A DNA stretch of 64,000 nt from an uncultured archaeon (GCA_964486045.1 CAZALK010000001.1:920837-984836); one strand, 5' to 3'. Positions 59,666-64,000 are shown, counted from the first letter of the stretch. Notes: a model not told the origin generated them from the sequence alone. Numbers and translations: made by a program.

Positions 59666-61003
59666 GTGGCAAAAGCAGCAGATTTAAAAAATAAGGATGG
59701 ATTTGTTGAAGGTCAAGCATATTTCTGCCCAGAATGTAATAGAATGCATAATAAAGGAAAAATATACAAAGAACATTTAGAGTATGCCCAAACAGAGAAA
59801 TCTACTGAGGACTCTAAAGAAAATAATTTTGATGATGAACAAGAATTAATTGAAGCATTCAATGAAATAGAAAAAGAAGTTGGTGTAGAAGAAGACATAG
59901 GTGTAGAAGAAGACATAGGTGTAGAAGAAGACATAGGTGTAGAAGAAGTCATAGGTGTAGAAGAAGACATAGGCGCAGAAGAAGACATAGGTGTAGAAGA
60001 AGACATAGGCGCAGAAGAAGATATAAATTTGCTCTTAGATGACAACGATGATACTATTGAGGATAGTGTAAAGACAGTTAAAAAACTTCCAGGTGTAGGA
60101 GAAGCTACTCTTAATAAACTTATAAAAGCAGGTTTCAATAGCCTTGAATCTATAGCATATACACCACCTAGAATAATCAAAGAGGAGAGCGGACTTGGTG
60201 ATAAAACGATTGAAAAATTAATAAAAGCCTCGATGGAACAATTGGGATTAGGTTTTAAATCTGCAGAAGCAATATGGGAGCACAGAAAGAATATTGCTAG
60301 AATTACAACGGGAAGTCAAGAATTAGATGACGTATTAGGTGGTGGTATAGAGACGGGGAGTGTTATTGAGTTTTTTGGAGAATTTAGAACGGGTAAAACT
60401 CAGATCATGCATCAGTTATGTGTGAACGTACAGTTACCAAAGGAAAAAGGTGGACTCGAGGGTAGAGCTTTATATATAGATACTGAAGGAACCTTTCGAC
60501 CAGAAAGGATTATACAGATGTCAGAAGGTCTTGATATAGATTATAAACAGGTGCTTAAGAATATCGTTTATGGAAGAGCCTACAATAGTGATCACCAAAT
60601 ACTCTTAGTTAAGGAAGCTACTAACTTAATCAAAGAAAAAAACATTAAGTTAATTGTGATTGACTCATTAATTGGTCATTTCCGAAGTGAATATATTGGT
60701 CGAGGTACATTAGCAACTAGACAACAGACCATCAATGCTCATCTCCATGACTTATTGAGATTGTGTGATATATATACGGATTTAGCAGTTGTACTAACTA
60801 ATCAAGTCCAGTCTAAGCCAGATACATTTTATGGGAACCCATTACGGGCTACAGGAGGAAATATTGTTGCTCATGGGTCAACTATTAGGATTTATTTACG
60901 AAAAGGTAAGGGAGAACAGAGGATTGCAAAAGTAGTCGATGCCCCTCACCTACCCGAAGGCGAGGCTGTTTTTAGTATTCTTGAGAGTGGGATATCTGAT
61001 TAA
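59666..61003 (+). CDS. radA: RadA/Rad51-family recombinase with N-terminal Zn-finger and acidic repeat extension
   Basis: HhH (LPGVG), FxxA polymerisation motif (GFKSA), Walker [20 protein letters not shown], Walker [28 protein letters not shown]. Confidence 0.95.
59882..60025 (+). repeat. In-frame 18-bp tandem repeat, 8 copies (GGTGTAGAAGAAGACATA) encoding G(V/A)EE(D/V)I
   Basis: Five exact copies and three variants read directly from the sequence. Confidence 0.95.
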
Positions 61004-61044: not shown

Positions 61045-61269
61045 CTATATTTTTATTTTCCAACCAAATTTTTGAGTAAACTCAATTTTTTCCTCATTAT
61101 TCAGTTGGTGTATTATCAAATTTATTACTTTTTCAGAAATAGTAATTCTTTGAATAGCTGCTCTCTCTAAAATTTTATCACTCAATATTTTTTGCGATTT
61201 TACTGACTTTTCTTCATACAGTATCTTTAAAATGATCTTTTCAATCTGTTTTTCAATTTTAGATGAGAT
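61045..61269 (-). CDS. Small winged-helix-like protein (74 aa) with probable ATC start; absent from the ORF track
   Basis: (I)SSKIEKQIEKIILKILYEEKSVKSQKILSDKILERAAIQRITISEKVINLIIHQLNNEEKIEFTQKFGWKIKI*; SD GGAGG at 61278-61282; no ATG/GTG/TTG between the upstream TAG (61303) and codon 28. Confidence 0.6.
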   Translation of the reverse strand: MSSKIEKQIEKIILKILYEEKSVKSQKILSDKILERAAIQRITISEKVINLIIHQLNNEEKIEFTQKFGWKIKI

Positions 61270-61541: not shown

Positions 61542-64000
61542 TTAGATTAATTTCTCGTATTCTTTAGATTTATTCGTAAGTCGTTTAACTTCCTTTGTCA
61601 TTTCATCTCCGCCTAGCTTAAATATTTCTGATGCTATTTTTGAAGATATTTTATATTTTTGAGAAGCTTCATTGTATTTTTCCTCTTTAGCTGCTAATTT
61701 TGCTTCTTTTTCAAGTTTGATCATTTTTTTCTTTAAATCTTCAATTTTTGTCAAGCGGATGAGTTCCTCTAGATCTTCTGATTCACCTAACAATTCCCAA
61801 TTTACAGCTATTTTAACAGCATTCTGTAAAATATTGATTGTCTTCTCATAATCCTCCTCTTTCTTCCCGGTTTTTGCTAGCTTTATTAAATTTTTAATCT
61901 CCTTTTTGGCAATTTTTATAGTGTCAATAACAGCCGCTCCTGGTTTTTCTTCAATAGGAGCAGATACAATTTCTTGTTCACTTAAGCTAACAAAATAAGC
62001 CTCTCTCTCGGCGGGACCCATTCGGGAAAGATCTTCTACTAATTTTTGTCTTTCTTCTTGGCTTAAATTGACTAAGCTGGCAACTTTTTGATTGATTAGA
62101 TCCATTTCTTGCTGGGAAATTGGTTGAACTTCTATAGCGCTTATTTCTATCGGTATCATTATTTTCTTGTCTCTTAATTCTTTTATTCCCATAAAAATTT
62201 CGGCTGTGTCTTTGTTTGTCTTTTCCGTTGCTTCTTTGAGAAGGGTCGCGATAAAGAAGAACTTTCTATCAGAAGTTTTCATTAAATTATTTGCTACTTT
62301 TAACACATCTCTAGAATGAGTATTCTTTAAGGCTTTTGCATTAGAGAATTCAAATGAGATTTCATGAGGCAAGATAATTGAAGTGTTCAATATCTCATCG
62401 ATTAGTATCCCAGATTCTCTGAATATATTCAATTGTCCTCTCCAATTAGGTAGCTCATTAATATAGGTTTTTTCAAATTCAATAATAAATTCCATCAAAT
62501 TTTTACGTAAGATTATTGATGGCTTTTTACTCAGTACCAAAGTTACCCTAATATATTCACCATCAGATAAGAGTAACATTTTATCACCATAAGTAATTTC
62601 GTTTAAAGTTTCCTGACATACCAGATCTTTACCAAAAGAGCATATAGCAGATATAAATCCGCTTATTAATTCGGGATCAATTAGATCTGAACCAAATGAC
62701 TTAAAGTAAACACATGTACCAGTTCCCTTATACAATACTAGAACATGTTCTAGATTAATAGCATCATCAAAAATTGTTTTTACTTCCTTCAAAACTCGTG
62801 CTTTCTCACGTTTTTTAGGAACAACCACTCCTCGGTATACTCCAATTGATCCACCACCTATCGCTAATGCTGCTCCAATAATTAATAAATAAGGTAGAAG
62901 ATCTTCGAAATTTAGACCTGTTGGAGGAGCCTTTACTGTAATATCAGAGATATCTAAAGTATCACCTAAATAATTGTAAACTTCTTGTATTTCAACCATA
63001 AGTGTCATATTTTTAGCGTCACTTCTTATTGTGATTTCAAACTCTACTTCACCGGTGCTATTAGTAGAAATTGGTGCAGTTGGATTTGTAGCAATTCCAT
63101 CAAAATATGGTGTTATTATACCATCTGTTCCTACTAAAACCAACCAATCTGAACCGTTATAATATTCTACTTTAAGAACTATTGTGAATGAATCCCCCGC
63201 AGTTATCTCAGTAGGTTTATTTACAACTGTGATTCTTGTTTCATATTTTGCTGCGATTCTTAATTTGAAACTCAATGTAGTCACATTATTACTACCTTTT
63301 CCCACTGTAATAAAAAATGTATAGTTGCCAGTAAGTAATTGGGATATGTTCAACGATCCAGAATGACTTGAAACTAATTCGGAAATCGAATGAAGTATTA
63401 CACCATTCTCACTCGTATCAATATTGGTGTAATTAATAATATAAGATAAACCAGCTCCTATTTGAATAATATTTCCAAAATTAGTATCTGTTATATTGAA
63501 TTCAATACCTACATTGCTTCCAATGAAAGTTTCATAAAAATTGTCTATACCTAATGATAATAGACCTCCTGGATTAGTTAATAATGTCATATTACTCTCT
63601 GCATAAACAATTCTTAAATTAAAATTAAGAGTGGAAACTATATTATTTGTTTTGTTAATAATAATGGTAATAGAGTAATTTCCAATTGAAAATGAGGAGA
63701 TATCTAAGCTCCCGGAATGACTTGAAGCTAATTCGGCAATAGAATGAAGTATTATACCATTATCACTAGTATCAATATTAGTATAATAAATAGTATAAGT
63801 ATTACCAGGCCCAATTTGAATAATGTTTCCAAAATTGGCATCTGTTGTATTGAATTCAATATTAATATCAGTTGCTACAGTAGGTTCATAAAATCCTCCC
63901 GCACCTGTAGGTGATAATTGACCCCCTAGGTTTGTTATCGATGTAATATTACTCTCTGCATAAACAATTCTTAAATTAAAATTAAGAGTGGAAACTATAT
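61542..64000 (-). CDS. Large single-pass surface protein: Ig-like repeats, TM helix, cytoplasmic longin/roadblock-like domain and helical tail (5' end beyond the window)
   Basis: The frame is open from 64000 through ATG 63590; ~119-aa beta-rich repeats with many N-x-S/T sequons; TM LLPYLLIIGAALAIGGGSIGVY then KKREK; LEHVLVLYKGTGTCVY..DPELISGFISAICSFGKDL. Confidence 0.8.
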   Translation of the reverse strand, partial: IVSTLNFNLRIVYAESNITSITNLGGQLSPTGAGGFYEPTVATDINIEFNTTDANFGNIIQIGPGNTYTIYYTNIDTSDNGIILHSIAELASSHSGSLDISSFSIGNYSITIIINKTNNIVSTLNFNLRIVYAESNMTLLTNPGGLLSLGIDNFYETFIGSNVGIEFNITDTNFGNIIQIGAGLSYIINYTNIDTSENGVILHSISELVSSHSGSLNISQLLTGNYTFFITVGKGSNNVTTLSFKLRIAAKYETRITVVNKPTEITAGDSFTIVLKVEYYNGSDWLVLVGTDGIITPYFDGIATNPTAPISTNSTGEVEFEITIRSDAKNMTLMVEIQEVYNYLGDTLDISDITVKAPPTGLNFEDLLPYLLIIGAALAIGGGSIGVYRGVVVPKKREKARVLKEVKTIFDDAINLEHVLVLYKGTGTCVYFKSFGSDLIDPELISGFISAICSFGKDLVCQETLNEITYGDKMLLLSDGEYIRVTLVLSKKPSIILRKNLMEFIIEFEKTYINELPNWRGQLNIFRESGILIDEILNTSIILPHEISFEFSNAKALKNTHSRDVLKVANNLMKTSDRKFFFIATLLKEATEKTNKDTAEIFMGIKELRDKKIMIPIEISAIEVQPISQQEMDLINQKVASLVNLSQEERQKLVEDLSRMGPAEREAYFVSLSEQEIVSAPIEEKPGAAVIDTIKIAKKEIKNLIKLAKTGKKEEDYEKTINILQNAVKIAVNWELLGESEDLEELIRLTKIEDLKKKMIKLEKEAKLAAKEEKYNEASQKYKISSKIASEIFKLGGDEMTKEVKRLTNKSKEYEKLI
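63591..64000 (-). repeat. Intragenic 357-bp period tandem repeat
   Basis: A 53-nt block at 63591-63643 is repeated identically at 63948-64000; the adjoining units encode similar peptides (IEFNxTDxNFGNIIQIG..YTNIDTSxNG.ILHSI.EL.SSHSGSL). Confidence 0.85.

Follow-up and report, generated by a model that had tools for sequence, protein, structure and literature searches.

A predicted longin-bearing cytoplasmic tail beneath sequon-rich surface proteins of Asgard archaea

What does a giant archaeal surface protein do with several hundred folded residues on the inner side of the membrane? This question is raised by a gene at the end of the window, that is, the whole 64,000-nucleotide stretch of DNA analysed here (G000:C1:920837-984836; GCA_964486045.1, CAZALK010000001.1). 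The source is a Lokiarchaeia-type Asgard archaeon. The listed sequencing runs containing the locus are all DNA runs, from marine sediment metagenomes, one of which is probably the source sample; no RNA run is among them. The gene appears as an open reading frame (ORF) of 818 codons on the minus strand, open from its stop codon (Table 1) to the window end. The original prediction, made from the sequence alone, described a receptor-like architecture, with glycosylated repeats outside, a single membrane helix and a cytoplasmic part made of a longin/roadblock-like domain, a winged-helix-like segment and a TPR/MIT-like end. All the elements it described are present where it had placed them, on the minus strand, and the architecture is largely borne out by the structural model and the topology data. 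The membrane helix, longin and winged-helix-like segment form a cassette of wide occurrence: of 301 Asgard genomes drawn from the whole phylum, 285 contain it (E <= 1e-10), including 89 of the 90 high-quality genomes.

The ORF does not end with the window. Directly beyond it lies a 100-N scaffold gap (G000:C1:984837-984936; L004 4838-4937), which interrupts the array of repeats: the 15 residues that precede it match the beginning of a unit, and a unit closes with the 16 residues on its other side. Upstream of the gap, the same repeat continues in frame, and 1472 codons lead to an ATG with no other start candidate before it. The N-terminus (MHNSNFKKKKR, followed by a hydrophobic stretch) is a signal anchor. 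The full gene, whose recovery the original prediction had proposed, thus encodes at least 2290 residues, plus those hidden by the gap. In a second assembly, from a close sister strain, a gap-free ortholog of 2115 residues has the same gene neighbours (in order: a P-type ATPase fragment, ATP-grasp_5, the surface-protein gene, a small ORF, RadA, a 414-residue protein and aspartate kinase). Because this gap-free ortholog is one ORF in the same context, the window ORF and the upstream ORF are one gene. Two separate genes, a 682-residue ORF and an upstream ORF of 1525 residues, were considered and rejected, as the frames are joined across the N-gap and the sister strain has a single ORF. The public gene call of 682 residues (P0003) begins at an internal ATG at 63590 and is a truncation artefact of the gap. 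A gap inside a tandem array with near-identical newest copies is the usual reason for an assembly break.

The protein is supported as bitopic, with the ectodomain outside, one transmembrane helix and the tail inside. Only two strongly hydrophobic segments are found in its sequence, the N-terminal one and the transmembrane helix LLPYLLIIGAALAIGGGSIGVY, and the latter is directly followed by the basic residues RGVVVPKKREKAR. The 1807-residue ectodomain carries 100 N-x-S/T sequons, where shuffled sequences of equal composition have 40.9 +/- 5.3; this density of 5.5 per 100 residues is 2.4 times the shuffle expectation. The tail, in contrast, has 3 sequons versus 2.2 expected by shuffling. This asymmetry and the positive-inside rule agree in placing the ectodomain outside and the tail inside, as had been predicted, and a reversed orientation is consistent with neither. 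The tail counts 430 residues from the membrane helix to the stop codon, where about 420 had been estimated. The ectodomain is probably N-glycosylated, to judge from its sequons. N-x-S/T sites of an Asgard archaeon have been found glycosylated, chiefly those of a single solute-binding protein (PMC11284389).

The ectodomain repeat, about 119 residues long, is present at least five times: twice before the gap, once broken by it and twice in the window, with identities of 31-60%. The 119-residue unit of the window is 45% and 31% identical to the two units upstream of the gap, and the other unit of the window has 113 residues. The sister-strain ortholog has three units, so that the copy number differs between strains. 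Tandem Repeats Finder returned no rows for the DNA, and the repeats are visible at the protein level only, except for the near-identical copies hidden by the gap. No part of the ectodomain, including the N-terminal 1472 residues, gave a Pfam match or a PDB sequence match. The language-model neighbours of the ectodomain carry Big_3_5, MG4 or Big_1 domains (scores 0.88-0.90), which is a lead only for the immunoglobulin-like nature of the repeats.

For the tail, numbered here with residue 385 of the window fragment as residue 1, relatives were collected by a HMMER scan of 1.84 billion cluster representatives, which gave 1047 matches at E <= 1e-3. A single-sequence AlphaFold2 model was unusable, with a predicted local distance difference test score (pLDDT) of 44.6, and was replaced by a model computed on an alignment of 104 homologs (A1; pLDDT 84.5, predicted template-modelling score 0.67). 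The structural matches of the tail are comparisons of this predicted model, not of a solved structure. In the model, the first domain (E32-39, E45-50, H58-70, E81-86, E89-95, E99-105, H111-127 and H145-158 by DSSP; pLDDT mostly 80-92) has the beta-beta-alpha-beta-beta-beta-alpha(-alpha) topology of longins. The beta-beta-helix motif that had been noticed in the sequence falls within it, VLVLYKGTGTCVY forming the longin beta1-beta2 and DPELISGFISAICSFG alpha1.

The best longin superposition was obtained with Sec22b (1ifq_B) by VIA-align, at Z 12.4 and a root-mean-square deviation (rmsd) of 3.0 A over 123 of 128 residues. Run without a Foldseek pre-filter, VIA-align ranked synbindin (Z 11.8), Sec22 (11.7), sedlin (11.0), VAMP7 (10.6) and the longin domain of the Lokiarchaeal Roadblock-Longin protein 8yqg_B (10.5), together with AP sigma and mu, SRX, Fuzzy (Z 10.1-10.9), Lst4, Mon1 and Ykt6. 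Every row over residues 31-159 is a solved longin, at Z 10-12.4 and with nearly the whole target covered, and these values lie above the background stated by the tool for non-helical folds. In the Foldseek search against the PDB, the top 50 were almost all longin or roadblock proteins, with modest E-values and a probability of ~1.0, including zeta-COP, Fuzzy, VAMP7, Sec22b, AP sigma, Mon1, LAMTOR and MglB. The target template-modelling (TM) scores are 0.6-0.72 for the longins versus 0.41-0.57 for MglB and LAMTOR. A roadblock/LC7 fold, whose order is alpha-beta-beta-alpha-beta-beta-beta, with an N-terminal helix on the sheet and without a pair of helices at the C-terminus, was rejected: the sheet-packing helices H111-127 and H145-158 follow beta5 as in longins, and the roadblock proteins score lower. 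Of the two folds named by the original prediction, the longin is thus retained and the roadblock abandoned, and the model gives no sign of the non-longin fold that would have refuted that prediction. The first cytoplasmic domain is supported, on the predicted model, as a longin.

Curated sequence models reach this domain indirectly. A Pfam longin match was obtained in one of the 104 relatives only (Sybindin, E 0.0011). The longin hidden Markov model (HMM) of the family matches about 45 ORFs in the same genome, and three small own-genome proteins that it matches, at E 2e-8 to 1e-6, pass the gathering score of Fuz_longin_1. Homology to the curated longins is supported by this transitive link. 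The family HMM also matches a longin-Arf/Ras GTPase fusion in the same genome. At G000:C17:94702-95589 (-; L027), a 296-residue protein combines a longin-like N-terminal domain with an Arf/Ras/Roc-type GTPase domain (Pfam Arf, E 5e-16).

In comparison, the eukaryotic longins (Sec22b, Ykt6 and VAMP7; AP sigma and zeta-COP; sedlin, synbindin and Bet5; Fuzzy and Mon1) share the same fold at Z 10-12.4 and rmsd 2.6-3.4 A over 114-125 residues, with sequence identities of 6-18%, the highest being that of Fuzzy (16-18%). However, none of them sits C-terminal to a transmembrane helix under a large extracellular domain. The SNARE longins are N-terminal in tail-anchored proteins and the other ones listed are soluble subunits.

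The segment ending in ELRDKKIMIPI is putatively winged-helix-like. In the model it shows the expected helix-helix-helix-strand topology (H176-192, H199-210, H214-226, E230-232), with ELRDKKIMIPI as the third helix and wing. This assignment thus stands in the model, but the profile of the segment retrieved only chance-level rows from the PDB, and sequence comparison did not confirm it either: hhalign against eight own-genome TrmB domains gave a probability of 18%, which is weak, yet in the expected helix-3/wing register. TrmB or HTH_47 matches are carried by related Atlas clusters and by one paralog. The C-terminal ~130 residues are TPR-like, with only two hairpins and not a TPR array. With the tail profile (A3), matches to consensus TPR proteins (E 1e-15 to 1e-7) and to PP5 TPR1 (E 0.002) fall in two distinct places, which coincide with two EE.Y motifs, the A-helices of the hairpins. 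Pfam TPR_2 matches occur in eight of the 104 members, the own-genome relatives of the segment are ordinary TPR proteins, and the Pins TPR superposes on the tail end over 62 residues at 1.2 A. An Atlas feature search with the C-terminal 194 residues found nothing. The predicted TPR/MIT-like tail is therefore upheld in its TPR part, whereas MIT is only marginal.

The positions conserved across the whole family are D28, K40, G43, G63-F64, F71, G96, R100, the invariant E125, F142 and P160-H161. R281, in the segment of three short helices, is conserved in 54 of 57 sequences, and a W and a G in the C-terminal helical domain are invariant in the subfamily. The features of the window part of the gene are collected in Table 1.

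Table 1. Features of the surface-protein gene within the window, listed from the window end to the stop codon.
Feature	Position	Strand	Basis or remark
Last 16 residues of a repeat unit, cut by the window end	63951..63998	-	Identical to the end of the next unit
119-residue ectodomain repeat unit, sequon-rich	63594..63950	-	Self-BLAST and translation
113-residue ectodomain repeat unit	63255..63593	-	60% identical to the preceding unit, E 9e-41
Membrane-proximal ectodomain segment, 118 residues, beta-rich in sequence	62901..63254	-	Translation; 87% identical to the sister-strain ortholog
Single transmembrane helix, 22 residues	62835..62900	-	Kyte-Doolittle peak 1.95
Basic juxtamembrane helix, isoelectric point (pI) 10, conserved P-K/R-K/R motif	62754..62834	-	AlphaFold2 helix 2-31; P10, K11 and K12 conserved
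Predicted longin domain, beta-beta-alpha-beta-beta-beta-alpha-alpha	62370..62753	-	AlphaFold2 with 104 homologs; structure superposition
Putative winged-helix-like segment, three helices and a short wing strand, opening with nearly invariant P160-H161	62127..62369	-	DSSP of the model and conservation
Three short helices (residues 245-288), only in the long-tail subfamily	61977..62126	-	AlphaFold2 model, conservation
Acidic low-confidence linker, pI 4.05	61920..61976	-	pLDDT <50 at residues 299-302, surrounding block 63-66
C-terminal helical domain with two TPR-like hairpins; five helices, residues 310-433	61545..61919	-	A3 profile and model
Stop codon of the surface-protein gene	61542..61544	-	Translation

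The extent of the match varies across the phylum. Matches over all 430 tail positions are found only in the window's own family and order, and matches of ~360 positions in one further genome of the same class; elsewhere the matches mostly cover positions 1-240 and some extend to ~330. By sequence matching, the TPR-like tail is restricted to one order. In 114 of the best 150 representatives, the module is preceded by 200 residues or more, and 111 of these 114 have a hydrophobic helix immediately before it. The upstream parts of those representatives contain a median of 3.9 sequons per 100 residues, and about 55 representatives also carry the TPR-like tail. A subgroup (P0040-P0051, P0056, P0062 and P0075), which includes the 2640-residue protein of L. 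ossiferum, has ~200 further residues after the TPR-like end. The family comprises ~1000 protein clusters, all named "hypothetical protein" in the databases, with orthologs such as Lokiarch_08060, DSAG12_03900 (Promethearchaeum syntrophicum) and WP_371805894.1 (Lokiarchaeum ossiferum).

The comparison with the sister strain reveals a strong contrast between the two sides of the membrane. The tail is 98.4% identical (427 of 434 residues) to that of the ortholog, and six flanking genes are 89-100% identical. The ectodomain is 87% identical next to the membrane and declines steadily from there, to 31-48% in its distal part and 31-33% at residues 121-300. A frozen inside joined to a fast-changing outside of variable copy number is what would be expected for an exposed contact or antigen-like surface attached to a conserved intracellular interaction.

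The module is not confined to this gene. Its carriers in the same genome are five signal-anchored, sequon-rich surface proteins, two polytopic membrane proteins (for the longin part) and one soluble protein of 464 residues. The number of paralogs bearing the cytoplasmic module under different ectodomains, a count that the original prediction had called for, is hence five surface proteins in this genome. The polytopic proteins (G000:C1:4039-6282, -, and G000:C11:59160-60323, +), with ~9 and ~7 hydrophobic helices, end in the same longin type, so that the module is not restricted to single-pass surface proteins. The soluble protein (G000:C9:177546-178937, -; L029) consists of a longin, a winged-helix-like segment and a TPR/MIT-like end, preceded by a Cys-rich C-x7-C-x6-C-x2-C segment, and may pair with the membrane-bound tails as a heterodimer. 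When two copies of tail residues 1-240 were co-folded, they scored 0.01 against a mark of 0.42, a result which counts neither for nor against dimerisation. In one surface-protein paralog (G000:C20:84369-86650, -), the longin is split over two overlapping frames of 623 and 156 residues, near residue 76-85; a frameshift, a misassembly or a short intron would each account for the split.

What, then, would such a tail be for? Tentatively, and by analogy with longins elsewhere, we favour a membrane-proximal docking platform for a cytoplasmic partner beneath the surface protein, a reading that we hold to be somewhat short of probable. The ectodomain would serve as an exposed contact, adhesion or coat element, and the tail would hold the partner at the inner membrane face under it. 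As its partner, a Rag/Arf-like small GTPase, of which the genome has many, would be likeliest, or else a longin/roadblock protein pairing with such a GTPase, and in the long-tail subfamily the TPR-like end would add a second protein-binding site. The proposal draws on what longin domains do elsewhere and on a GTPase-rich genome with longin-GTPase fusions. Dimers of longin or roadblock domains offer small GTPases a platform (PMC3747258, PMC10933270), and both domains are expanded in Asgard archaea (10.1101/2020.10.19.343400).

The closest functional analogy for a non-catalytic, membrane-proximal longin platform would be the SRX domain of SR-alpha. This longin lies at a membrane, where it docks the Arf-like GTPase SR-beta, and it matches the model at Z 10.0-11.2 (7obq_y, 5ck3). 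However, in that system the membrane anchor is on the SR-beta GTPase and SR-alpha is without an ectodomain; the likeness shown is one of fold.

Several points weigh against the docking platform. Many longins do not bind GTPases, for example the SNARE longins and the adaptor sigma subunits, and the structural matches do not separate the longin subfamilies, the Z values being tied within ~2 units. No curated Pfam longin model matches the protein itself, whether searched with the window fragment, the tail or the N-terminal 1472 residues. No binding partner of the tail was found. No GTPase, roadblock, longin or ESCRT gene adjoins the gene in five contexts, namely this genome, the sister strain, L. 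ossiferum and two metagenomic contigs. The coupling of surface contact to a small GTPase or ESCRT-III, as had been proposed in the original prediction, has no direct support, although it stays plausible given the roles of longins in other systems. As to the outside, the sequon excess is the only ground for glycosylation, and in the one published Asgard glycoproteome only a solute-binding protein is heavily glycosylated (PMC11284389).

The rival with the best prospects, which we still consider unlikely, is a structural coat protein that replaces an S-layer, its tail being only an anchoring, oligomerising or sorting module, attached for instance to lokiactin or to neighbouring tails, and with no GTPase signalling. 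Complex surface proteins of unidentified nature are numerous on Lokiarchaeal cells, which are devoid of an ordered S-layer (PMC9834061). A generic housekeeping role of this kind also fits the occurrence of the same cassette under many unrelated ectodomains, five of them in this genome, and it agrees with the lack of GTPase genes in the five contexts. The SNARE and adaptor longins, which are among the top structural matches, are not GTPase regulators. On the other hand, a four-module tail of 430 residues, conserved at 98.4%, far exceeds the anchoring needs of archaeal surface proteins. The presence of the module in polytopic and soluble proteins speaks for an interaction domain that is portable between proteins and against an anchor proper to the coat, and this genome fuses related longins directly to Arf/Ras-like GTPases. 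Archaeal S-layer-type glycoproteins likewise have a signal sequence, a very sequon-rich and beta-rich ectodomain and a single C-terminal transmembrane helix, but their chain stops within a few residues of the anchor or undergoes processing at PGF-CTERM. Here, 430 folded and conserved residues follow the helix and no PGF motif precedes it, and an archaeosortase/PGF sorting signal was rejected on these grounds.

A more far-reaching form of the docking platform may also be considered, although it appears distinctly doubtful. The family would then represent phylum-wide Asgard single-pass receptors, whose ectodomains, glycosylated and hypervariable, would detect partners, prey, viruses or surfaces, and whose invariant longin-winged-helix tails would recruit Rag/Arf-like GTPases at the contact site. 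They would correspond to the "complex surface proteins" on Lokiarchaeal cells and would constitute a prokaryotic forerunner of receptor-to-GTPase coupling. In eukaryotes, such coupling drives membrane remodelling, trafficking and engulfment.

The C-terminal domain leads to another possibility, that of an ESCRT-linked cargo or recruiter in which this domain would act as an MIT-like module for ESCRT-III tails, coupling the protein to scission, vesicle release or protrusion remodelling. Six of the 104 members match Pfam MIT below the cut-off, at best with E 0.0014, as does the soluble paralog with 15.2 bits versus a cut-off of 30, and the A3 profile reaches the archaeal and human Vps4/CdvC MIT chains at E 0.1-0.2. 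In addition, longin, TPR, Ig-like and HTH domains are reported to occur together in multidomain proteins associated with ESCRT in Asgard archaea (PMC11188069). We nevertheless consider this very unlikely, since the TPR matches are many orders of magnitude stronger than those to MIT, the nearest own-genome relatives of the tail end are ordinary TPR proteins, and the model has five helices and not a three-helix bundle. Moreover, no ESCRT genes lie nearby, and most family members outside this order are without the tail end.

Placed lower still is a membrane-anchored GTPase-activating protein (GAP) of the FLCN/NPRL2/SMCR8 type, presenting an arginine finger to a Rag- or Arf-like GTPase. The order of a longin followed by winged-helix repeats is that of NPRL2 and NPRL3 (PMC3747258), the subunits of GATOR1 (Npr2/Npr3 of SEACIT), and of the NPRL2-like longins reported as abundant in Asgard archaea (10.1101/2020.10.19.343400). 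Foldseek returned co-linear alignments to GATOR1/SEA chains of 370-400 residues, over 329-388 columns and at a probability of 0.72-0.92, but these have an rmsd of ~25 A and TM scores of 0.16-0.21. In the GAP-type longins (FLCN, NPRL2, SMCR8 and C9orf72), a GP motif stands at the end of the beta1-beta2 loop, next to the arginine finger (PMC12290439). In the present family this loop reads K-x-S/T-G: column 43 is G in 100 of the 104 sequences, and column 44 is T, I, V, L, A or S, P not being among the common residues. The only well-conserved arginine, R100 (88 of 104), sits inside strand beta5 of the model and not in a loop. The Pfam NPR2 model gave no signal in any of the 104 members. Only one winged-helix-like unit follows the longin, compared with two or more in NPRL2/3 (PMC3747258), which, in addition, are soluble and not membrane-anchored with an ectodomain. 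The likeness to NPRL2/3 is one of layout, not of membership. [quoted passage not shown]

Least credible of all is a membrane-tethered transcription regulator, with a winged helix that would contact DNA either from the membrane or once proteolysis has freed the tail, in the manner of ToxR or of regulated intramembrane proteolysis. The winged-helix-like segment is present and mildly basic (pI 9.1), with the TrmB and HTH_47 matches among its relatives mentioned above. However, its conserved positions are mainly hydrophobic, the helix that would recognise DNA has the sequence E-I-x-x-x-I-x-E-L-R, and the segment resembles no DNA-binding winged helix significantly. The winged helices beside longins in eukaryotic complexes are protein-binding (a point left open by PMC3747258). 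Moreover, with surface-protein paralogs numbering in the dozens per lineage, equally many regulators would have to be assumed.

The gene order adds little to the choice between the docking platform and its rivals. The only conserved context, common to this genome (L004 2379-13292) and L. ossiferum (CP163304.1, L040 5936-17923), is a P-type cation ATPase, an ATP-grasp_5 protein of 229-233 residues and the giant surface protein, and the downstream side of the gene differs between the two. In the window, a small ORF at 61045-61185 (-) lies downstream of the gene. It has 46 residues, versus 86 residues (from a TTG start) in the sister strain; the C-terminal half is identical in that strain, and the ORF is without a family assignment. 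It is followed at 59666-61003 (+) by a RadA/Rad51-type recombinase, whose N-terminal extension contains a zinc-knuckle-like CPEC..H motif and a tandem run of about eight acidic hexapeptides (GVEEDI). This protein has 445 residues here and 413 in the sister strain, at 93.7% identity.

Longin proteins as such are known in Asgard archaea. The soluble longin/roadblock proteins and longin-GTPase fusions described there (Tran et al. 2024, PMC10933270; PDB 8yqg) belong to the same phylum and share the same fold. In contrast to the present family, they are cytosolic, and a transmembrane-anchored longin under a surface glycoprotein is not mentioned in the papers searched. No paper was found on the named orthologs or on a membrane-anchored longin, in a body of literature outside of which most subscription journals fall. 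In that literature the receptor-like setting is undescribed. New here are the reconstruction of the gene across the gap, the graded strain divergence calibrated on the flanking genes and the negative GP-motif test, as well as the limitation of the TPR-like tail to one order and the census of membrane-bound and soluble carriers in the genome.

Gene order offers few clues to what the large GTPase, longin and roadblock expansions of Asgard archaea are connected to. With a conserved longin cassette under many surface glycoproteins, one such connection point can be placed at the cell surface, and this in almost all of the Asgard genomes searched. The cassette also offers a defined bait for partner finding, in the form of a soluble tail of ~240 to 430 residues. 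The family provides candidate genes for the surface proteins seen by cryo-tomography on Lokiarchaeum ossiferum, among them its ortholog WP_371805894.1, and the hypothesis is testable in cultured organisms, since another ortholog, DSAG12_03900, belongs to the cultured Promethearchaeum syntrophicum. Should the partner be a GTPase, the family would bear directly on the way in which contact at the surface was tied to membrane dynamics prior to the rise of eukaryotes. Should it not be one, the family is still a large unannotated component of the Asgard cell envelope.

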